In this document: positions 5,843 to 62,574 of the stretch, piece by piece | Position numbering within the stretch: position 1 is the first letter of the stretch | How the letters are laid out: every line of letters starts with the position of its first letter | Assembly (NCBI GenBank): GCA_043806135.1 | Contig: JAZDHG010000016.1 | Location: 42,110 to 106,109, forward strand | From: Candidatus Omnitrophota bacterium | Lineage (GTDB): Bacteria; Omnitrophota; Gorgyraeia; B26-G9 | Length of the DNA stretch: 64,000 nt | Reading direction: 5' to 3' | Program-made: the position numbers and the translations under genes | Notes under the pieces: generated by a model | The model's database searches: none | Told to the model about the DNA's origin: nothing | The model's input: only the letters and a program-made list of their open reading frames with translations

Positions 5843-5857
5843 CTGTAAAAAGTAGAG

Positions 5858-6016
5858 AGTAGCAAGAAGCGAGTAGCGAGAAAATAATAGAATAAAAACA
5901 TGATAAAAAAAATTATAAAACATTAATAGTAATTTTCGGATTATTAAAAATAATTTTATAATTGTAATGTTTAAATGAGAGGGTATAAAAATTTTGTCTT
6001 GCTACTCTCTACTCGC
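5858..6016. repeat. Long inverted repeat (16-nt perfect arms AGTAGAGAGTAGCAAG plus flanking GTAGCGAG motifs) enclosing an AT-rich ~120-nt loop, in the ilvB-ilvN intergenic region
   Basis: Read directly from the sequence: the arms are at about 5862-5877 and 5997-6012 in reverse complement. The element lies between ilvB and ilvN. Confidence 0.5.
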
Positions 6017-36851: not shown

Positions 36852-37733
36852 ATGGAACGATATATCGATAAGTTCTTGAATTATTTAAAAGTAGAAAAAG
36901 ATGCATCAGTGCATACCTTGATAAATTACAGCGTTGATTTGAAAGAGCTTGCGCAGTTTTTGAATAACCGGGAGCTTAAAACAATAGATGTTTTTGATGT
37001 CCGAAAATTTCTGGTTACGCTGCGGCAAAAAGGGTTTAAAAAAGTTACAATTGCACGTAAAATGGCCTGCCTCAGGTCTTTTTTTAAATTTTTAACCCGT
37101 GAAGGACATCTAAAAGCAAATCCGATGATCGGACTGGTTGGCCCGAAATTAGAAAAAAAACTGCCTTTATTTTTGGGTGAAGATGATATTGTGAAGCTTT
37201 TAGAAACGCCTGATGTTGCTGATGCTGCCGGATTGCGTGATAAAGCGATACTTGAGACATTATACAGCACCGGCATACGCGTAAGCGAGCTGGTGGGCTT
37301 AAGCGTAGAGGATATCGACTTTATTTCCGGGATTGTAAGAGTTTATGGTAAGGGCAAGAAGGAGAGGCTGGCGCCTATTGGTGATAGAGCGTTAAGGGTT
37401 ATCAAAAATTACTTAAAAAAGCGCAAAAAAGGCATAGGGACTTCTGATCGTGCGGTGTTTTTGAATAAGGACGGACGCAGGCTTACGGACCGCAGTATTC
37501 GCAATATCGTTGAAAAATATATAAAAGTTGCCAGTATTAGGACTGATATATCACCGCACAGCTTAAGACATTCGTTTGCCACGCATCTTTTGAACAGAGG
37601 GGCTGACCTGCGTTCAGTTCAGGAATTACTGGGCCATGCCAATTTATCCACAACGACTATATATACACATCTTTCCACGGAAAGACTTAAAAATGTTTAT
37701 GACAAGACGCATCCAAGGGCAAATAAAGAGTAA
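36852..37733 (+). CDS. xerC: Tyrosine site-specific recombinase XerC/XerD family
   Basis: 293 aa with the RHRY catalytic residues (HSLRHSFATHLL, LGHANLSTTTIYTH). The position after topA is common for xerC. Confidence 0.8.
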   Translation: MERYIDKFLNYLKVEKDASVHTLINYSVDLKELAQFLNNRELKTIDVFDVRKFLVTLRQKGFKKVTIARKMACLRSFFKFLTREGHLKANPMIGLVGPKLEKKLPLFLGEDDIVKLLETPDVADAAGLRDKAILETLYSTGIRVSELVGLSVEDIDFISGIVRVYGKGKKERLAPIGDRALRVIKNYLKKRKKGIGTSDRAVFLNKDGRRLTDRSIRNIVEKYIKVASIRTDISPHSLRHSFATHLLNRGADLRSVQELLGHANLSTTTIYTHLSTERLKNVYDKTHPRANKE

Positions 37734-37962: not shown

Positions 37963-38068
37963 GAAGCAACTATTAGTAACCCCTATTAACTGTTGGTAAC
38001 TTGTAATTAGTAACCAGTAACTCATAACTCGTAATTCGTAACTAGTAATTAGTAGTAACTAGTAACTA
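37963..38068. repeat. GTAAC/GTAAT tandem heptamer and phased repeat array ending 4 nt before the kdtA start codon
   Basis: GTAACCA GTAACTC ATAACTC GTAATTC GTAACTA GTAATTA GTA GTAACTA GTAACTA. The 5' part is near-identical to the element at 16105-16158. Confidence 0.65.
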
Positions 38069-41856: not shown

Positions 41857-42912
41857 ATGAATAATAAACAATATTTAGCAGGGCTTTACCCCGAAGAACT
41901 TCAAACCATAGTAGCGGGCTTAAACCATCCAGTATACAGGTCAAAGCAGATACAGGAGTGGATATTTAAGAAAAGTGTTCTGTCTTTTTCAGAGATGAAA
42001 AACCTTCCCGGAGAACTAAGGGAAAAGCTGGAGATTAAAAATTGTCCTGTCAGTCTTCATCAAAAATTAAAATTAACCTCTGCTGTTGATAAAACCTCTA
42101 AATATATTTTTATTACCGATGATGATAATTCTTTAGAAACTGTTTTGATACCGACAGCCAAGCGGGCTACTGTATGCGTATCTACTCAGGTAGGATGTGC
42201 CTTTGGGTGCTTATTTTGCGCAAGCGGCAGCGGAGGACTGGTGCGCGATCTTAGGGCAGATGAGATCGTTTCGCAGCTATTGCTTGTAAAAAAAGACAAC
42301 CCCGAACAGCCGGTCACTAATATTGTATTTATGGGCATGGGAGAGCCGCTGGCAAATTATGAGAATACTTTAAAGGCAATCAGGATTTTAAACCATCCGG
42401 ATTGTCTGGGAATAGCCGCAAGGAGGATAACCATTTCAACCTGCGGGTTGCCGGATGCGATATTGCAGCTTGCCAAAGAGAACATACAGTTTGAATTATC
42501 GATCTCGTTGCATGCCGCGGATAATGATACGCGAAACCGTCTTATGCCGATAAACAAGAAATTCCCCCTGAATATGCTGATGAAGGCGGCCAGGGAATAC
42601 ACTCAGGTGACAAACCGCATGATCACATTTGAATATGTGATAATGGACGGGATCAATGATTCAATAAAAGCAGCTTTAGATATCGCGCATCTATTCTTTG
42701 CACTTAAGTGTAAACTTAATATTATCCCGTTTAATCCTGCTGGGGCAATGGATTTTAAGCGCGTGAAAAAAACACAGCTTGAAGAATTCACGCATATGCT
42801 TCAAAGGCTTAAGATCAATTTCACTCTAAGGCGTTCGCGGGGTGCGGATATCCAAGGCGCCTGCGGACAATTGAGAGCAAACTTAGATAAGGGGTTAGGG
42901 GATAGCGTATAG
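41857..42912 (+). CDS. rlmN: 23S rRNA (adenine2503-C2)/tRNA methyltransferase RlmN (radical SAM)
   Basis: 351 aa with the radical SAM CxxxCxxC motif in VGCAFGCLFCASG, conserved RlmN N- and C-terminal motifs, and the catalytic Cys in GACGQL. Confidence 0.92.
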   Translation: MNNKQYLAGLYPEELQTIVAGLNHPVYRSKQIQEWIFKKSVLSFSEMKNLPGELREKLEIKNCPVSLHQKLKLTSAVDKTSKYIFITDDDNSLETVLIPTAKRATVCVSTQVGCAFGCLFCASGSGGLVRDLRADEIVSQLLLVKKDNPEQPVTNIVFMGMGEPLANYENTLKAIRILNHPDCLGIAARRITISTCGLPDAILQLAKENIQFELSISLHAADNDTRNRLMPINKKFPLNMLMKAAREYTQVTNRMITFEYVIMDGINDSIKAALDIAHLFFALKCKLNIIPFNPAGAMDFKRVKKTQLEEFTHMLQRLKINFTLRRSRGADIQGACGQLRANLDKGLGDSV

Positions 42913-42937
42913 GGGATAGAATTGTTGGTTGATCGTA

Positions 42938-43007
42938 ACATAAAGATCAGCTGCCCTGAGCCGCCACGATTAGCGGCGGGGAAGGGTTAGCTGAATTGCC
43001 TTGTTAT
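42938..43007 (+). repeat. attC-like imperfect palindromic repeat A
   Basis: ATAAAGATCAGCTGCCCTGAGCCGCCACGATTAGCGGCGGGGAAGGGTTAGCTGAATTGCCTTGTTAT. The stop codon of the downstream minus-strand gene overlaps the GTTAT box. Confidence 0.6.
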
Positions 43008-43282
43008 CTTTTTTCCATCATTCTGCCATTAACAAATTTATGAATAATGCTTGCTAATAAAGTTTGATAAGGAATGCCTTCTTCTATTGCTCTAATTTGG
43101 ATTCCATTGAGATCCTTTGAAGATATTCTAATGTTCACGCGTTTATCTTTTTTTAAGGTGTTTTTAGCATATTTTTGATGTTTTTTGATCTCTTGTTTTA
43201 AATCTTTTATAGATTCCCATTCCTTCCGGTTATAAGAATCTACTAAGTCTTGTTCATATTTGTCTAAATTATTTTTTTTCAT
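43004..43282 (-). CDS. brnA: BrnA antitoxin (RHH/CopG-like; type II TA)
   Basis: 92 aa with KDKRVNIRISSKDLNGIQIRAIEEGIPYQTLLASIIHKFVNGRM, a BrnA signature. Overlaps brnT by 4 nt. Confidence 0.8.
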   Translation of the reverse strand: MKKNNLDKYEQDLVDSYNRKEWESIKDLKQEIKKHQKYAKNTLKKDKRVNIRISSKDLNGIQIRAIEEGIPYQTLLASIIHKFVNGRMMEKR

Positions 43283-43563
43283 TTTTCACCTCGTATATAT
43301 TTTTTTGTAGCTTCACGGCTAGGGATAATAGTTTTTAGAAAATATGTGTCTCCTTTTTCTGCAACAAAAGGCACTAAATACGCATAATTATTTACATTAA
43401 CAATAAGAATGTTTTGATTGGGATATTTATTTTTATTCGGATGGTGTATTATATCAATAAGGTAACCTTTTTCTATGCAAGAAACTATTTCTTCAAAACA
43501 GATACCCCGATCATTTTTCAGCAGTTTATTTTTATCATTATCCCAATTATAGTATATATTCAT
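43279..43563 (-). CDS. brnT: BrnT toxin (DUF497 RNase; type II TA)
   Basis: 94 aa of DUF497-like sequence (NDRGICFEEIVSCIEKGYLIDII), paired with brnA. Confidence 0.75.
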   Translation of the reverse strand: MNIYYNWDNDKNKLLKNDRGICFEEIVSCIEKGYLIDIIHHPNKNKYPNQNILIVNVNNYAYLVPFVAEKGDTYFLKTIIPSREATKKYIRGEK

Positions 43564-43620
43564 AATTAAAATATATCACATTGTGTGCGCTTTGGCAACA
43601 AAATATTTTATATTAATATA

Positions 43621-43690
43621 ACATAAAAATCAGCTGCCCTGAGGCGGCGCCGAATGGCGGCGGGGAAGGGTTAGCTAATTGCTTTGTTAG
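43621..43690 (+). repeat. attC-like imperfect palindromic repeat B
   Basis: ACATAAAAATCAGCTGCCCTGAGGCGGCGCCGAATGGCGGCGGGGAAGGGTTAGCTAATTGCTTTGTTAG. Confidence 0.6.
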
Positions 43691-43693
43691 ATT

Positions 43694-43972
43694 TTACTGA
43701 TATCTATGTTTATCATACACTTCCTTGCGATGGCCTATTTTTAACACTATAATATCATTTTCTTCGATTTTATAGATAACTCTATAATCTCCCACGCGTA
43801 GTTTTCGGTATCCTTGCAGGCTTCTACGCAAGGGTTCACCATATTTGATAGGATCAGATAGCAGCCTATTTTCAATAGCTTTTCTAATTCTTGTTTTTAT
43901 GTTTTTTGGAATTCCTGAAATATCTTTTTTGATTTCAGGATGATAGGAAATCTGATAGTTCATTAGTTCCAA
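43694..43972 (-). CDS. relE: RelE/ParE-family toxin (type II TA)
   Basis: 92 aa with the RelE/StbE fold pattern (RKLRVGDYRVIYKIEENDIIVLKIGHRKEVY). Confidence 0.8.
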   Translation of the reverse strand: MELMNYQISYHPEIKKDISGIPKNIKTRIRKAIENRLLSDPIKYGEPLRRSLQGYRKLRVGDYRVIYKIEENDIIVLKIGHRKEVYDKHRYQ

Positions 43973-44190
43973 ATATCCTTGTGAGATATTTTTTTATTCT
44001 TTGAAAGAGAATTGTCTCTTTTTCGTGCCTGTTCTTGCCAATATAAATCTTCTCTAATTTCCAAAGCTTCTTTTATAAGATCTCTGGAGAAAAGAGATAG
44101 GGAAATTCCCTGGCTTTGAGCTGATTTATTAAGAATATTATATATTTCAGGGTCAAGTACGACATTTATTCTAGGATTTTTAGTTGGCAT
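43963..44190 (-). CDS. RHH (CopG/RelB-like) antitoxin partner of RelE
   Basis: 75 aa with an N-terminal ribbon-helix-helix segment (RINVVLDPEIYNILNKSAQSQGISLSLFSRDLIKEAL). Overlaps the relE start. Confidence 0.7.
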   Translation of the reverse strand: MPTKNPRINVVLDPEIYNILNKSAQSQGISLSLFSRDLIKEALEIREDLYWQEQARKRDNSLSKNKKISHKDIWN

Positions 44191-44310
44191 ATTTTTACCT
44201 CCACAATAAGTGTATCACATGTGATGAACCTTGTCAATGGGTAATTATCCCATTTTTGCATTTAATGGTAGGGGGGGTAAAAATAGTCGCTGTCCCTATT
44301 TTTCCCTAGA

Positions 44311-44660
44311 TAAACAATAAATTCCCCCTGAATATGCTGATGAAGGCGGTCAGGGAATATACTCAAGCGACAAACCGCATGATCACCTTTGAGTATGTGA
44401 TAATGGACGGGATTAATGATTCAATAAAAGCAGCTTTAGATATTGCGCATCTACTCTTTGCACTTAAGTGCAAACTTAATATTATCCCGTTTAATAATGT
44501 TGGGGCAATAGATTTTAAACGCGTGAAAAAAGCACAGCTTAAAGAATTCACGCATATGCTCCAAAGGCTTAAGATTAATTTTACTATAAGGCGTTCGCGG
44601 GGTGCGGATATTCAAGGCGCCTGCGGGCAGTTAAGGTTACATGTAGATAAGGGTAATTAG
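44311..44660 (+). pseudogene. rlmN: Duplicated 3' fragment of rlmN (last ~108 codons; ~90% nt identity to 42551-42890)
   Basis: Direct comparison with rlmN 42551-42890. The translation (MLMKAVREYTQATNRMITFEYVIMDGINDSIKAALDIAHLLFALKCKLNIIPFN...RRSRGADIQGACGQL) matches the RlmN C-terminus, but the radical SAM N-terminus is absent. Confidence 0.85.
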
Positions 44661-44746
44661 GCGTAAGCTGTAAGTTTTAAGCCTTAAGCAAAAACAGAAA
44701 GTATCCAATAAGTTTCTAAAAGTTTAGGTCTTATTACGTACAGCTT

Positions 44747-44820
44747 ATAACGTAAAAATCAGCTGCCCTAAGCCGACGCCAACTGACGGCGGGGAAGGGT
44801 TAGCTGGATTGTCTTGTTAG
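44747..44820 (+). repeat. attC-like imperfect palindromic repeat C
   Basis: ATAACGTAAAAATCAGCTGCCCTAAGCCGACGCCAACTGACGGCGGGGAAGGGTTAGCTGGATTGTCTTGTTAG. Confidence 0.6.
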
Positions 44821-44825
44821 AAATT

Positions 44826-45092
44826 CTATTCATAATGAGTCCACATGCGAATAATTTTTACTGTTTTATATTTTTTTAGAACTTGATAAACAATTCTATG
44901 TTGTATAGTTACTCTTCTTGAGTATGCGCCGGTTAAATCACCTACTAGCTTTTCGAATGGGGGGGGAGTCTTGAAAGGATTTCTCTTTATGATTTCCAGG
45001 ATAGCTTCGGCTTTAGGACACATACCACTGGCAGAAAGTTTCTTTGCGTCCTTCAAAGCTTGTTTTGTATAAACTATTTTCCAATTTACCAT
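44826..45092 (-). CDS. yoeB: YoeB/Txe-family toxin (type II TA)
   Basis: 88 aa with KIVYTKQALKDAKKL...LTGAYSRRVTIQHRIVYQV...IIRMWTHYE, a YoeB signature. Confidence 0.85.
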   Translation of the reverse strand: MVNWKIVYTKQALKDAKKLSASGMCPKAEAILEIIKRNPFKTPPPFEKLVGDLTGAYSRRVTIQHRIVYQVLKKYKTVKIIRMWTHYE

Positions 45093-45343
45093 GTTAATTT
45101 CTTATTGCATTCTTTAATTGGAGTTTTTAATCCCTTCCGAATTGATTCTCGCATTCCTGGAATAGAGATAAGATATAAGGTTTCCTGGATAGACCGCCAG
45201 TCATTTTCTGAAATTAAGACAGCATTATGTCTTTTTCCAGTAATCTGTATCGGTTCATGCGATAAGGCGGTCTTGTCTAATAATTTATATAATATGCTTC
45301 GTGCTTGACTTGCTGTTAAAGTAGTCACTGTAATCACCTCCAA
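45086..45343 (-). CDS. yefM: YefM/Phd-family antitoxin
   Basis: 85 aa of Phd/YefM-type N-terminus (LTASQARSILYKLLDKTALSHEPIQITGKRHNAVLISENDWRSIQETLYL). Overlaps yoeB by 7 nt. Confidence 0.85.
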   Translation of the reverse strand: MEVITVTTLTASQARSILYKLLDKTALSHEPIQITGKRHNAVLISENDWRSIQETLYLISIPGMRESIRKGLKTPIKECNKKLTW

Positions 45344-45414
45344 TTAAAGCGTACCACATCACGTACGTTTTGTCAATAATTGATTTTTATATTATTTATT
45401 GCTAACATTTGAGC

Positions 45415-45478
45415 TCAGGCAGAGGAAACCGACGCCATTTGGCAGCGGTTTGCGATTGCCTGGAGCGATTTGCTAGGA
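45415..45478 (+). repeat. Degenerate attC-like repeat D'
   Basis: The core ACCGACGCCATTTGGCAGCGG resembles GCCGACGCCAACTGACGGCGG of repeat C. The outer arms have diverged. Confidence 0.4.
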
Positions 45479-45479
45479 G

Positions 45480-45830
45480 CTATTTATTTTCTTCCTGAAT
45501 AATTTTTTCGATTTCTTTATGGAGAGAGGGGATTTTGTTAATAACTACATCCCACACAATATCATAATCTATGCCGAAGTAATCATGTATTAATATATCC
45601 CGCATGCCAGCCATAGCGCGCCACTCTATATAAGGATGTTTTTGTTTTAAGTTGTCAGGGGTATTTTTTGTAGCCTCTCCGATAATTTCTATACTACGGA
45701 CAAACGCTCGTTGGAGTGTTTCGTGCTGCATAAAATTTTCTTTAGCCAATCCTTTTGTTTGACTTAAAATATATTTTGTTTCATCCAATATATGGTGAAG
45801 ATATTCATGCCCGGGAAATGACATATTCAA
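45480..45830 (-). CDS. hepT: HepT-like toxin (DUF86, RNase; HepT/MntA type II/VII TA)
   Basis: 116 aa with the Rx4HxY motif in MRDILIHDY and a DUF86 helical pattern. Confidence 0.8.
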   Translation of the reverse strand: MNMSFPGHEYLHHILDETKYILSQTKGLAKENFMQHETLQRAFVRSIEIIGEATKNTPDNLKQKHPYIEWRAMAGMRDILIHDYFGIDYDIVWDVVINKIPSLHKEIEKIIQEENK

Positions 45831-46113
45831 CCTCTCTCAATATATTAGGTTTAATATAAGGGCTTAATGATTCGGAAGTTACTAATTCTATGCGATGTTT
45901 TAATAATGTTTCAAGCAAAAAGGAAAGGTGAATGAAATTATCAAAGTTTTTTTTATCAGGGTAGAATTCAACAAGTAAATCAATATCGCTTTTAGGGTTT
46001 TGTTTTCCCTTAACGAACGAGCCAAAAAGACCAAGTTGTTTCACGCCGAAAGATATAATATCATTTTGGTTATTTTTTATAAGATTTAAAATTTCTTCTT
46101 TATCTTTAATCAT
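45805..46113 (-). CDS. mntA: MntA-like minimal nucleotidyltransferase antitoxin
   Basis: GLFGSFVKG....SDIDLLV nucleotidyltransferase motif. I take the ATG at 46113 as the start; the ORF track extends to a TTG at 46149. Overlaps hepT. Confidence 0.75.
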   Translation of the reverse strand: MIKDKEEILNLIKNNQNDIISFGVKQLGLFGSFVKGKQNPKSDIDLLVEFYPDKKNFDNFIHLSFLLETLLKHRIELVTSESLSPYIKPNILREVEYVISRA

Positions 46114-46277
46114 ATTACTTATTATAACTATTCTTATTGGAGTTTTCAATAGATAGTATTTTTTTTGAATGAACCCAAACTAAAATTAAAGAGATTATCC
46201 AAAGTATCCCAGTAGCAAAGCCCCCCACCAATAATACTAAATAAAGCAGAAAGAAGCTATTCATTCATAATTTTTCA

Positions 46278-46363
46278 GATAACACAAAAATCAGCGGCCT
46301 TTAGAAACGGCACCTTCTTTTTCGCAAAAGCCGTTAATAAAGGTCCGCTGGATTGTCTTGTTA
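46278..46363 (+). repeat. attC-like imperfect palindromic repeat E (longer loop)
   Basis: ATAACACAAAAATCAGCGGCCTTTAGAAACGGC...GCCGTTAATAAAGGTCCGCTGGATTGTCTTGTTAG, with nested inverted repeats. Confidence 0.55.
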
Positions 46364-46370
46364 GATGGTA

Positions 46371-46937
46371 CTATTTTATTTCTATCAAAATGGTGTTAGA
46401 AATTAAACTATCGACAAAAACATTTTTAAGCCCTATTTTTTTACTTATCGCAATCTCTTTTCCATCTGTATCTACTGTAATTCCATCCCACCCATCATAA
46501 GTAACAAAAACTTTAAATTTTCCTGAATGAGCTAATTTAATTAATGAATCATCAAAATCGATGACAGAATTTTTTTCTTTTCGTATTTTTGCTTTGATAT
46601 TCCTTTTATATTCTTCTCCTGCCTTGACCAACTTGTAATCTTTTTCATCCCACATTATATCATACATAATTGTTCTTTCTGAGGGTTGGTTGTTTCCTGC
46701 TTCGTCAGTAATGGTAAATAAATCTGCGTTATAAATATCCTCGATATAAATATACCTATCTTCTGGGGTTATATTTTTAAGAATTAACAGAAATTCCATG
46801 TTGTCTTCTGGTTTATAAATCTTTTTATCCGATGTGATAGTAAATTGGAACACTTGAGATGCTTCTCGACATCGTCCAGTTATAGCTAAAGAGAAAATCG
46901 CAATCCCTATAACTGTAAAAATAATTAATTTTTTCAT
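46371..46937 (-). CDS. Secreted/lipoprotein-like hypothetical protein (last cassette-like unit)
   Basis: Signal peptide (MKKLIIFTVIGIAIFSLAITGRC) with a GGAGG RBS upstream of the ATG at 46937. No recognisable domain. The ORF-track start (47021, TTG) is probably too long. Confidence 0.55.
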   Translation of the reverse strand: MKKLIIFTVIGIAIFSLAITGRCREASQVFQFTITSDKKIYKPEDNMEFLLILKNITPEDRYIYIEDIYNADLFTITDEAGNNQPSERTIMYDIMWDEKDYKLVKAGEEYKRNIKAKIRKEKNSVIDFDDSLIKLAHSGKFKVFVTYDGWDGITVDTDGKEIAISKKIGLKNVFVDSLISNTILIEIK

Positions 46938-47256
46938 TATTTTCCTCCATCTAACATTTAATAGCCGAAAGGCGCATTTCCTTGTGTTTTTCAGCATACC
47001 ATATCTAATTTTGTGGGGCAATTAGAATTTTTCAGAGTAAAAAACTTGAAATTGGCCCATATTTTGTCTATAAAACCACAACTCAGAGCCCATCACTGGG
47101 GTAGGATTTGGGTTGCTTTTAATGATAGCTTTGTGACCTTTGTCCCGGCGACAATAACTGTATTTTCTCTAACTGCTAAACGTTATAATTGTGATATACT
47201 ATAGAAGATCTTGCTAACACATAACTCATAATTCATCACTTGTAACTGAGGCAGAT

Positions 47257-47766
47257 ATGTCTCTACACTATATAATCGACGGATACAATGTTATAAAACA
47301 GGTGACCTTTTTGACCGGGGAAAAGCTAAGGGCCGGAAGAGAAGGCCTGGTACAATTTATTGAACGCTACAGGCCTCAGGGCTCAAAACGCAATGAGATA
47401 ACTATTGTTTTTGACGGTAAAGCCGAGGTGGTTGGCTATAGTATGAAAACTGATATAAAGATAATATTCAGCAGGAACGAATCAGCAGACGATGTAATAA
47501 AGCGTATGATAGAGAAAGTTTCTAATCCCGGGCAGTATGTGGTAGTAAGCGATGATAAGGCAGTTGTGTTCTACTGCCGGTCTATCGGAGCGAAATGGAT
47601 TGCGGTAAAAGATTTTATTGGCAATACAGGCATTAAGAAAACGCCGCAGAAAAAGAGCAGTTATATACCGGAATCAAAGGAATTATCGCAGGATATAGCC
47701 GATAAGATCACTGAGAACCTGAGAAAACTTTGGGTTAAGGATGATGAAAAGGAAAGCTGGTATTAG
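47257..47766 (+). CDS. NYN-domain (YacP-like, PIN-fold) predicted RNase
   Basis: 169 aa with MSLHYIIDGYNVIKQ and an acidic-residue pattern like B. subtilis YacP. Confidence 0.6.
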   Translation: MSLHYIIDGYNVIKQVTFLTGEKLRAGREGLVQFIERYRPQGSKRNEITIVFDGKAEVVGYSMKTDIKIIFSRNESADDVIKRMIEKVSNPGQYVVVSDDKAVVFYCRSIGAKWIAVKDFIGNTGIKKTPQKKSSYIPESKELSQDIADKITENLRKLWVKDDEKESWY

Positions 47767-47794: not shown

Positions 47795-47940
47795 AGTTAT
47801 GAATTACGAGTGATGAGTTATGAATTAAGAAAGGGAAGCTGGTTTGTGGGTGTGGAGGCTGGAAAAATAAAAGCAAAAAACTATTAACTTGTAATTTATA
47901 ACTCGTAATTAGTAATTTGTAACTTATAACCTTGTATTTG
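47795..47940. repeat. GTAAC/GTAAT heptamer-type repeat arrays (two blocks in opposite orientation) upstream of the flavoprotein gene
   Basis: AGTTATGAATTACGAGTGATGAGTTATGAATTAAG (47795-47830) and CTATTAACTTGTAATTTATAACTCGTAATTAGTAATTTGTAACTTATAACCTTGTA (47880-47940). Both are similar to the kdtA-upstream array. Confidence 0.6.
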
Positions 47941-47958
47941 ATAAAAAACAGAGAAAAG

Positions 47959-61393: not shown

Positions 61394-61485
61394 ATAATAG
61401 CGGTTAGCGAATAGCGATTAGAGAAAACAAGAATGTAAAAATCATAACAAAGCAATTGAACAGTATCCTTAGAAAGGGGTTTAAT

Positions 61486-62538
61486 ATGTACTATCCTGTT
61501 TCGAGATTAAGAAGATTACGTAAAAGTCATCTTTTGCGGGAAATGGTTAAGGAGACGAATTTAAGCGCAGTATCCTTTATCTATCCTGTTTTTGTAGTTG
61601 AGGGAAAAAACATAAAAGAACCCGTAAAATCAATGCCCGGAGTTTTTAGGTTGTCTGTGGACAATTTACTGAAAGAAGCCAAAGAAGTGGAGAGCCTGAA
61701 TATCCCGGCTATTATGCTTTTCGGTATACCTGAGAAAAAGGATGAGAGGGCTACGGCTGCCTATGCTAAAGGCGGTATTGTGCAAACAGCAATAAGGGCG
61801 CTCAAAGAAAAACATTATAATTTGCTGATAGCAACTGATGTATGTCTTTGCGCCTATACAGCTTCCGGGCATTGCGGGATAGTGAAAAATAAAATCTCTC
61901 CGACTCAGGAAAACCCGGAAGAAGAAAATGCTTTAGATACCTCTTCTGCAGGGGAAGTTGTTGTCTATAATGACGCGACATGTGAATTGCTTGGTAAAAT
62001 GGCCTTGTCGCATGCAGAAGCAGGAGCAGATTTAGTCGCGCCAAGCTCCATGATGGATGGACAGGTTGCGGCTATCCGCAAAGTTTTGGATGCAAATAAT
62101 TTTAAACATGTTCCGATTATGGCCTATAGTGCGAAATTTGCCTCAAATTTTTATAGTCCTTTTCGTGATATTGCTGATTCCAGTCTTGGTACAGGAGACA
62201 GAAAAACATATCAGATTAATCCTGGCAATACTAACGAGGCATTGAGAGAAATAGAGTTTGATATTCAGGAAGGGGCAGACATGGTCATGGTAAAGCCGGC
62301 GCTTGCATATTTGGATATAATTGCCAAAGCAAAGCAGAAATACCAGGTACCGATAGTCGCTTATAATGTAAGCGGTGAATTTTCAATGGTTAAGGCAGCA
62401 GCGTCACTGGAGTATATAGATGAAAAGTCAGTTACTCTTGAAATATTAACAAGCATAAAAAGATCCGGAGCTGATTTGATCATTACTTATCATGCCAAAG
62501 ACGCCGCACGCTGGCTTAGCGGCCAATACCTGCTTTAA
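61486..62538 (+). CDS. hemB: Porphobilinogen synthase (delta-aminolevulinic acid dehydratase)
   Basis: N-terminus YPVSRLRRLRKS, active-site lysines (MVKPA) and metal-binding Cys (DVCLCAYTASGHCG). I take the ATG at 61486 as the start. Confidence 0.9.
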   Translation: MYYPVSRLRRLRKSHLLREMVKETNLSAVSFIYPVFVVEGKNIKEPVKSMPGVFRLSVDNLLKEAKEVESLNIPAIMLFGIPEKKDERATAAYAKGGIVQTAIRALKEKHYNLLIATDVCLCAYTASGHCGIVKNKISPTQENPEEENALDTSSAGEVVVYNDATCELLGKMALSHAEAGADLVAPSSMMDGQVAAIRKVLDANNFKHVPIMAYSAKFASNFYSPFRDIADSSLGTGDRKTYQINPGNTNEALREIEFDIQEGADMVMVKPALAYLDIIAKAKQKYQVPIVAYNVSGEFSMVKAAASLEYIDEKSVTLEILTSIKRSGADLIITYHAKDAARWLSGQYLL

Positions 62539-62574
62539 GTTAAAAGTAAAAAGTAGAAAGTAAAAAATTATAAA

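Follow-up and report, generated by a model that had tools for sequence, protein, structure and literature searches.

We conclude that the segment at 42933-47085 of a 64,000-nucleotide stretch of DNA from a Candidatus Omnitrophota genome (contig JAZDHG010000016.1; "the window" below means this whole stretch) is very probably the remnant of a canonical chromosomal integron, either a cluster of attC sites lacking an integron-integrase (CALIN) or an integron in decay. The segment occupies the gap between rlmN and a gene for an NYN/YacP-domain protein (42912–47257), which holds nine minus-strand genes grouped as five compact units. It begins 20 nt past the stop codon of rlmN, in agreement with an earlier reading made from the letters of the DNA (the sequence-only reading), which had described an insertion directly 3' of that gene. 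The five palindromes that this reading described, separating four toxin-antitoxin pairs and a secreted protein, are all present where it placed them; they are imperfect and measure 77 to 90 nt. Pfam supports the toxin-antitoxin families. It was also right that the only minus-strand genes of the window lie in the array, as all other minus-strand open reading frames (ORFs) overlap plus-strand genes. The G+C content of the array is 0.30 to 0.37, compared to about 0.41 in the flanks.

A CALIN is defined as two or more attC sites that share a strand, lie less than 4 kb from one another, and have no integrase nearby (PMC4889954, PMC9024848). Here, the minus strand carries five attC sites, spaced 0.65 to 1.13 kb apart, and the window contains no intI. 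As a resident intI is absent, the locus counts as a CALIN by definition and falls outside the definition of a complete integron. The earlier description of a CALIN-type array rich in toxin-antitoxin cassettes, without a neighboring integrase, is therefore apt.

attC sites and their strand

The five repeats are real integron attC sites. A covariance model, R1, was built solely from the attC sites of ten class 1 resistance cassettes on sequenced plasmids (aadB, aadA1, aadA5, cmlA6, aac(6')-IIc, aac(6')-Ib4, qacG2, blaOXA-1, arr-3, and dfrA17), and its structural input consisted only of the textbook R-box and L-box pairs plus one unpaired base. The attC sites of dfrA1 and dfrA14 were left out of the alignment, where MAFFT misplaced their 5-nt spacer. 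In an unfiltered search of both strands of the window (a search space of 128 kb), the top five matches were exactly the five repeats, with scores of 29.5, 28.0, 26.6, 22.8, and 17.3 bits (E values of 3e-5 to 0.04); the next match had an E value of 2.6. The proposal that these repeats are integron attC sites is thus upheld by a model trained on class 1 sites. All five matches lie on the minus strand, so that the plus strand is the attC bottom strand. At nine metagenome loci with a bona fide IntI, which served as a control on strand, 28 of 28 R1 matches were upstream of intI and divergent from it.

Because all sites lie on the minus strand, the cassette genes are in the normal forward orientation. 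The sequence-only reading had them reversed, which is contradicted both by the strand of the attC sites and by the position of the bulges on the plus-strand 3' arm. It had also swapped the R'' and R' boxes, since the plus strand is the bottom strand: the GTTAGAT that it named R' is R'' read on the bottom strand. For annotation, the lesson is that the strand of an attC site needs asymmetric bulges or a structural model, and the GTT and AAC boxes alone are insufficient.

The conserved arms of the repeats are confined to the array. Across the window, the arm motif ATCAGCTGCCCTGAG has seven matches at up to 3 mismatches (0.97 expected), the four best of which are repeats, and the arm motif GCTGGATTGTCTTGTTAGA has two (0.03 expected); no conserved arm motifs were found in the window outside the five repeats. 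The earlier estimate that the repeats are roughly 80% identical stands for three of them (79 to 83% in pairwise comparison). It fails for the copy at 46277, which has the same arms and a different loop (about 60%), and for the copy at 45400, which represents a different attC sequence type (about 57%).

In the folded plus strand, the 3' arm has bulges of one base each (T and G), and these fall where the extrahelical bases T12'' and G20'' occur in the bottom strands of known attC sites (PMC2727003). The plus-strand series CCGCT-G-GAT-TGTCTT-GTTAGAT parallels GGCTT-G-AAC-GAATT-GTTAGAC of the aadA1 bottom strand. The window sites have the same build as class 1 sites such as those of aadA1 and cmlA. 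R'' is 7 nt long and ends in AAC; a spacer of 5 to 6 nt and a stem of 3 bp come next, then an extrahelical C (G on the bottom strand) and a stem of 5 bp. A second bulge, a loop that varies, and an R' conforming to GTTRRRY complete the site. The window sites differ in that their spacers are 6 nt rather than 5 and in belonging to another sequence family, within an A+T-rich context and with non-resistance cassettes from an uncultivated phylum. The sites fit the canonical attC architecture closely, and attC_B shares 67% identity with the attC of cmlA6 from class 1 integrons. There is no need to invoke the new attC-like recombination system that had been put forward as the other option.

Relatives of the main attC type occur in other genomes. 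A pattern scan of a genome collection with one genome per species, in which the window's own genome was not included, gave 12 matches; ten are true relatives and two (L007 and L011) are chance matches. The ten are in metagenome-assembled genomes (MAGs) labeled Stahlbacteria, Omnitrophota, Nanoarchaeota, Patescibacteria, Sumerlaeota, and Lentisphaera. Same-strand arrays of the family are present in L012 (at least nine copies in 8 kb), L010 (four copies), and L004 (three to four copies). The two copies measured, those of L005 and L012, are 74 to 79% identical to the window sites and 92% identical to each other. L005, an Omnitrophota sequence, holds a complete integron whose third cassette is closed by an attC of the main type (74% identical). 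The IntI of this integron scores 401 bits with TIGR02249 (cut-off, 265), shows 46% identity to IntI1, and includes the insertion specific to IntI proteins. The top strand of this attC is the cassette coding strand and corresponds to the reverse complement of the window plus strand.

The attC family is conserved in structure and not in sequence. Over 36 sites, 93% of cells are paired, and the L-box helix is 98.6% paired, in an alignment that was fitted to the model and so favors pairing. Six of the eight L-box pairs have changes on both sides, the observed covariation score was reached by 0 of 500 shuffles, and pairing drops to 23 to 40% in slid-partner controls. The three inner R-box pairs are invariant in 33 to 34 of 35 family members. 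The outer R-box positions are often unpaired in the 36-site alignment, as expected of R' as a hybrid with the cassette that follows.

We give almost no credence to the view that the palindromes are a genome-wide family of repeats, resembling repetitive extragenic palindromes (REP) or miniature inverted-repeat transposable elements (MITE), or of terminators, unrelated to integrons. They are intergenic, G+C-rich hairpins after convergent gene ends, as such a family would be, and the genome has other intergenic repeats (heptamer arrays). However, the window has no copies outside 42.9-46.4 kb, all copies lie on one strand with one per cassette, and the L005 copy is associated with an IntI. The invariant AAC/GTT, the asymmetric bulges, and the complementarity to the next cassette are specific to attC sites. 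The outcomes that the sequence-only reading had named as fatal to it did not arise: the repeats fit an attC model, further copies stand in arrays, related genomes hold differing cassettes at this position, and no scattered REP/MITE pattern was seen in the window.

The five sites differ in their state. Two of them, attC_A and attC_C, appear intact. The former has the longest loop, with T and G single-base bulges on the plus-strand 3' arm, and folds at -19.7 kcal/mol (z of -4.9 to -5.8). The AAC/GTT boxes are present in four of the five sites, the exception being attC_B, in which the conserved AAC of R'' is mutated to AGC; attC sites of this sequence type recur in relatives (L015 6022-6152 and L016 11807-11886). 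The unpaired C position of R1 is filled in four of the five sites and deleted in attC_D, which is without an extrahelical base beside the 3-bp stem. The boxes of attC_E are weak; this site is found by an nhmmer profile of the family at an E value of 4e-19, and its DNA fold gives the R box, spacer, L box, and loop. These lesions in three sites, together with the missing integrase, suggest that the array is decaying.

Cassettes, boundaries, and the rlmN' fragment

Four of the five cassettes carry predicted toxin-antitoxin modules, as judged from adjacent small toxin and antitoxin genes with family signatures (Table 1). The matches to ParE, YoeB, PhdYefM, HepT, and NTP_transf_2 are above the Pfam gathering score, and those to BrnT (PF04365, E = 2.8e-5), the CopG/BrnA-like antitoxin (PF12441, E = 1.4e-5), and RHH_5 are below it. 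In every cassette, the last stop codon and the R'' box of the cassette's attC are 0 to 5 nt apart, as is standard for integron cassettes. In cassette 5, the TAA stop codon of the BrnA-like gene (43004-43006) is inside the R'' box of attC_E, as the sequence-only reading had noticed in placing the stop of the first cassette gene within a TAAC/GTTA box. Exact-protein look-ups of the NYN gene product and of the cassette 1 protein found no record.

The cassette boundaries were compared with the rule that the tail of an attC R' box (TTRRRY) complements the R'' of the attC of the next cassette. In reference arrays, the R' tail fits the next R'' at 5 to 6 of 6 positions in most pairs. At the start of cassette 1, G|TTAGATGG at 46955, 9 of 9 positions agree with the reverse complement of the attC_A R'', and the start of cassette 3, TTAGCA, fits that of the attC_C R'' at 5 of 6.

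Promoter-like sites of their own precede several of the modules on the minus strand: 43598-43570 in cassette 5, 44237-44209 before the RHH-ParE genes (TTGACA-17-TACACT with an upstream TG), and 46149-46121 in cassette 2 (TTGAAA-17-TATAAT), the last being the best such site of the region. The MntA-type gene of cassette 2 probably starts at the ATG at 46113. Cassette 2 also opens with a 49-aa hydrophobic ORF, on the minus strand (46115-46264). In cassette 1, the ribosome-binding site lies 8 nt past the cassette boundary, which leaves no room for a promoter within the cassette, so this cassette must be read from outside.

Table 1. Features of the integron remnant and its surroundings (window coordinates unless a relative is named)
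Feature	Coordinates	Strand	Details
attC_E (repeat 1)	42933..43009	-	R'' AGATAAC, R' GTTACGA; terminal, weakest; R1 17.3 bits, E = 0.042
attC_D (repeat 2)	43616..43692	-	R'' ATCTAAC, R' GTTATAT; R1 22.8 bits, E = 0.0017
attC_C (repeat 3)	44745..44822	-	R'' TTCTAAC, R' GTTATAA; R1 28.0 bits, E = 7.8e-5
attC_B (repeat 4)	45400..45478	-	R'' TCCTAGC, R' GTTAGCA; R1 26.6 bits, E = 1.7e-4
attC_A (repeat 5)	46277..46366	-	R'' ATCTAAC, R' GTTATCT; R1 29.5 bits, E = 3.2e-5
attI-like region	46955..47085	-	crossover G|TT at 46955|46954; core CGGCTATTAAATG|TT
Expected place of intI	47086..47256	.	171 nt, no intI similarity; final ~45 nt form the conserved region upstream of the NYN gene
Cassette 1	46371..46940	-	189-aa protein, hydrophobic N-terminus, no Pfam family; span 46283-46954
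Cassette 2	45805-46149, 45480-45830	-	MntA-type nucleotidyltransferase antitoxin, HepT toxin; span 45406-46282; PF01934 E = 4.4e-28, PF01909 E = 1.6e-13
Cassette 3	45086-45343, 44826-45092	-	Phd/YefM antitoxin, YoeB toxin; span 44751-45405; PF02604 E = 1.1e-14, PF06769 E = 4e-11
RHH-ParE unit	43694-43972, 43963-44190	-	ParE/RelE toxin, ribbon-helix-helix (RHH) antitoxin; PF05016 E = 4.5e-14, PF07878 E = 7.9e-5
Cassette 5	43279-43563, 43004-43282	-	BrnT-like toxin, CopG/BrnA-like antitoxin; span 42939-43621
rlmN' fragment	44301..44660	+	pseudogene copy of the last ~360 nt of rlmN (42541-42900), within the array
rlmN	41857..42912	+	core gene, distal flank, convergent with the cassettes; TIGR00048 377 bits (cut-off, 290)
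NYN/YacP-domain gene	47257..47766	+	core gene, flank at the attI end; 100% match to an Omnitrophota MAG protein with PF05991
Period-7 arrays	5851-5880, 37996-38068, 42890-42919, 47215-47240, 47795-47827, 47885-47944, 61396-61425, 62537-62566		
Period-7 arrays in relatives	L031 3266-3310, L015 6040-6130, L016 11070-11100		

The array also contains a fragment, rlmN', of the gene next to which it stands. This direct repeat (D1) matches the end of rlmN at 93% over 300 nt ungapped and at 90% over 356 aligned positions; the homology starts at GATAAACAA and stops near the stop codon. Both rlmN ends are equally distant from the rlmN genes of relatives. The repeat had gone unreported in the sequence-only reading. 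The succession of rlmN' and attC_C mirrors that of the true rlmN end and attC_E, and attC_C is the terminal attC of the sub-array proximal to the NYN gene. The array is two array ends joined, with cassettes 1 to 3 running up to rlmN' and cassettes 4 and 5 running up to rlmN. Cassette 4 is oversized (1,129 nt) because the two arrays are joined within it. The join most likely arose through homologous and illegitimate recombination combined, with a diverged relative as partner, or through an old duplication. The action of IntI does not account for it. The breakpoint GATAAAC|AA of rlmN' was considered as a secondary site of IntI and rejected, as the flanking bases differ from the attC_D R''. A tandem duplication or a Campbell-type event may be sketched as the history linking the window, rlmN', and the arrangement in the relative L031.

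The same repeat could be taken for the attL and attR of a genomic island, or of two tandem islands, inserted at the 3' end of rlmN by a tyrosine recombinase, with the palindromes as terminators. The repeat of 300 to 360 nt does bracket 1.4 kb with two toxin-antitoxin modules, the G+C content is low, and two of the palindromes score as terminator-like. We nevertheless consider an island very improbable. No island integrase is present, the sole recombinase being XerC, 5 kb away; a repeat of 360 nt at 90 to 93% identity is unlike a site-specific att duplication; and a terminal attC follows both rlmN ends. The palindromes, moreover, fit the class 1 attC model, covary, and are found elsewhere beside a real IntI.

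The flanking genes are core genes, and the RlmN of the window is 100% identical to a protein of an NCBI Candidatus Omnitrophota MAG. Short tandem arrays with a period of 7 nt (units GTAACTA, AGGGGAT, TAACTCA, and AGTAGCG) occur in many intergenic gaps of this genome and of its relatives. They flank the NYN gene on both sides and touch the rlmN stop codon.

The attI-like end, the missing integrase, and the same position in relatives

The first cassette adjoins a region that resembles the integrase-proximal end of an integron. The window at 46925-47081, starting at the boundary of cassette 1, is 72% identical over 160 nt (E = 7e-16) to positions 112-267 of L031, a relative in which this segment lies directly upstream of an intact intI (407 bits with TIGR02249). 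The crossover boxes, AAC| (G|TT), align between the two. The cores are alike in the window (CGGCTATTAAATG|TT), L031 (CGTCTATTATATG|TT), and L005 (CGTCTAATAATTG|TT), where the core boundary was fixed by the complementarity rule, and their common consensus is CG(G/T)CTAWTAWWTG|TT. A Pc-like site faces the cassettes (-35 TTGCCC at 47021-47016, 17 nt, -10 TATGCT at 46998-46993, with TGn), and a Pint-like site lies on the plus strand (TTGAAA at 47046-47051, 17 nt, TATAAA at 47069-47074). Both hexamer pairs are positionally conserved in L031, and both sites would, to judge from their sequences, function as promoters. A sixth, short attC at 46947-47000 was considered and set aside: it escapes every model, and the attI core accounts for it better.

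With moderate confidence, we take this region to be the putative attI, Pc, and Pint of the integron, from which intI would have been lost at 47086-47209. The window at 47210-47300 matches L031 3889-3978 at 80% (blastn). The sequence-only reading, which had reported no attI, is probably wrong on this point, given that homology to the intI-proximal end of L031 adjoins the first cassette. Its report of no intI nearby is borne out: no integron integrase was found in the window, 42 kb on one side of the array and 17 kb on the other, by a TIGR02249 search or by tblastn with the IntI proteins of L005 and L031, nor was a remnant of intI, as the two real IntI proteins found only the Xer gene. That gene, a tyrosine recombinase at 36852-37733, 5 kb upstream of the array, is the housekeeping XerC/XerD for which it had been taken (352 bits against a cut-off of 335, with 131 bits against a cut-off of 265 on TIGR02249). 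The IntI proteins of L031 (467-1759) and L005 (3128-4453), which are 54% identical, have a ~110-aa N-terminal extension before the SAM-like domain with no Pfam family, and many metagenome relatives also match across this extension.

By analogy with established integron biology, the system would have worked as follows. In minus-strand order, the attI-like site and Pc-like promoter precede the secreted protein, MntA-HepT, YefM-YoeB, RHH-ParE, and BrnT-antitoxin cassettes, each ending in an attC, with intI expected on the plus strand, divergent from attI. On folding, the plus (bottom) strand would pair its R box (AAC/GTT) and leave the spacer unpaired; the L box would carry the extrahelical T and G, and the loop would vary. 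IntI would cut between A and C of the bottom-strand AAC; a tetramer joining two hairpins would excise a cassette, and one joining a hairpin to attI would insert it. Without a resident intI, the cassettes would be mobile only with an IntI from elsewhere in the genome or from an incoming element, and are presumably immobile at present. Cassette 1 would be read from the promoter of the attI region, and the four toxin-antitoxin cassettes, with putative promoters of their own, may serve as addiction modules and thereby keep the array where it is.

In relatives, the position is either empty or differently filled. In L032 and L033 (RlmN about 55% identical), the NYN gene comes straight after rlmN. 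In L015, L016, and L022 (RlmN 77%, 71%, and 69% identical), other small minus-strand genes follow rlmN; L015 and L016 carry attC sites of both sequence types, and most such contigs break there. L031, with an NYN protein 81% and an RlmN 77% identical to those of the window, has an rlmN-NYN gap of 658 nt without attC, and its intI is upstream of yraN-rlmN. A weak plus-strand attC match at L031 52-97, considered as a possible marker of the first cassette of that relative, is nearly palindromic and thus ambiguous as to strand. As a test of a sedentary integron's position, this comparison involves short contigs, and no single relative spans the whole locus. The locus has therefore been rearranged more than once.

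Other sequences were observed at this position. In L016 (11030-11056) and at the same place in L017 to L021, the rlmN stop codon is inside a half attC (GGGTTAGCTGGATTAAGTTGTTAGAT), which is what a deletion that joined the end of the gene to the R''-L'' arm would look like. A noncoding motif, TATCCTGAAATAGGTTG(A/G)CAGAAA, follows rlmN in L016 (11108-11135) and L031 (3320-3347) and is absent from the window. Directly 3' of rlmN in L015 (5469-5990) and L022 (10181-10690) is a minus-strand gene for a conserved predicted membrane protein of 169 to 173 aa, with no attC between it and rlmN and no counterpart at that place in the window.

Several points weigh against an integron that lost its integrase here. 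R1 is a proxy from ten sequences and not the attC model of IntegronFinder, and two of its five E values are modest (0.0017 and 0.042). The boundary rule gives 2 of 6 after attC_A, 2 of 6 after attC_C, and an ambiguous 4 of 6 after attC_D. The mismatch at the R' tail of attC_C is expected of an array terminus, and that between the start of cassette 2 and the attC_B R'' makes cassette 2 possibly composite; from its sequence, it may be a fusion of two former cassettes. The putative attI is based on homology to one relative plus a 13-nt core common to L005. The intI of L031 stands upstream of yraN-rlmN and not between rlmN and the NYN gene, so the window and L031 loci are not simply related by deletion. 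The search for intI spans 64 kb of a 124-kb contig from an incomplete MAG, and an intI elsewhere in the genome is possible. The only records recovered by an exact look-up of RlmN were two short Logan contigs that end within the first attC sites or shortly past them; these have the same first cassettes and reveal no strain-level presence or absence of single cassettes. A metagenome scan with the L031 IntI found none of 80 integrase loci near yraN, rlmN, or the NYN gene, and thus no intact ancestral form; one of the 80 has weak similarity to the attI region, and type-1 attC sites are essentially absent among them. Finally, none of the results point to recombination at the present day.

Some of these points bear on whether the array might be a working satellite CALIN, its cassettes moved in trans by a complete integron elsewhere in the genome, with no intI ever lost from this locus. 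About half of CALINs are in genomes that encode an IntI (PMC4889954), the close relative L031 has an intact intI two genes from rlmN, and attC_A and attC_C retain intact boxes and extrahelical bases. In addition, GC skew is positive along the whole window (1-64000), in which nearly all genes are on the plus strand, which would put the bottom strands of the attC sites on the template of the lagging strand; this placement favors folding and goes with small arrays (PMC5371416). We regard such a satellite as a serious but unlikely possibility. The attI-like end and a Pint-like promoter pointing at nothing fit local loss of intI better than they fit a detached block of cassettes, three attC sites have lesions at functionally important positions, and there is no intI in the window. 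An integron that lost its integrase in place is the reading that we prefer.

Relation to known integrons and significance

CALINs, the ways in which they may arise (loss of intI among them), and their wealth of toxin-antitoxin cassettes have been described before (PMC4889954, PMC9024848, PMC9668308). The locus agrees with the CALINs of Cury et al. 2016 (PMC4889954) in its five same-strand attC sites less than 4 kb apart, with no intI within 4 kb, in its typical size (CALINs average about 5 to 6 sites), and in its non-resistance cassettes. It differs in keeping an attI-like site and divergent promoter-like sequences, and in this respect resembles an integron with the integrase cut out. Full-text literature searches found no paper describing integrons in Omnitrophota.

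With integrons of the Vibrio cholerae superintegron type, the locus shares a chromosomal setting, a position that relatives with different cassettes also appear to use, and three attC sites about 80% identical to one another. Like sedentary chromosomal integrons, it contains toxin-antitoxin cassettes that bring promoters of their own (putative ones here); such cassettes are regarded as stabilizing these arrays. In contrast to the V. cholerae superintegron, it has five cassettes rather than up to about 200, four of the five are toxin-antitoxin cassettes, in forward orientation, and there is no integrase. Its attC bottom strands, placed on the lagging-strand template by GC skew, would also be arranged opposite to those of most large sedentary integrons (PMC5371416).

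The archaeal and cross-domain integrons of Ghaly et al. 2022 (PMC9668308) are likewise mostly CALINs in MAGs, with toxin-antitoxin as the commonest annotated cassette function and near-identical attC sites across distant taxa; the window type is 74 to 79% identical in MAGs labeled Nanoarchaeota. The window itself is bacterial, however, and cross-domain sharing here rests on MAG binning. The wide taxonomic labeling of the main type reflects either a cassette pool that crosses phyla and domains or short cassette contigs that were mis-binned. A tightly conserved attC family (74 to 92% over ~75 nt, with identical arms) in at least six phyla and both domains could represent a single circulating cassette pool, a speculative proposal that we think is probably not correct. 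If the bins were right, free-living hosts and ultra-small episymbiotic lineages would exchange cassettes. An IntI clade with the ~110-aa N-terminal extension would then serve the pool, and the Omnitrophota locus would be a decaying docking site.

The result leaves the known mechanism of integrons unchanged. Less ordinary are the retained attI-like end, the relative with intI, the rlmN' scar, and the wide labeling of one attC type, to which binning errors may contribute. What had been a suggestive pattern is now a securely identified integron remnant in Omnitrophota. It would provide a compact example of how a CALIN may originate: the integrase is absent while a putative insertion site and putative promoters persist, the attC sites appear to erode, and predicted addiction modules make up most of what is left, whereas a relative still has the integrase.

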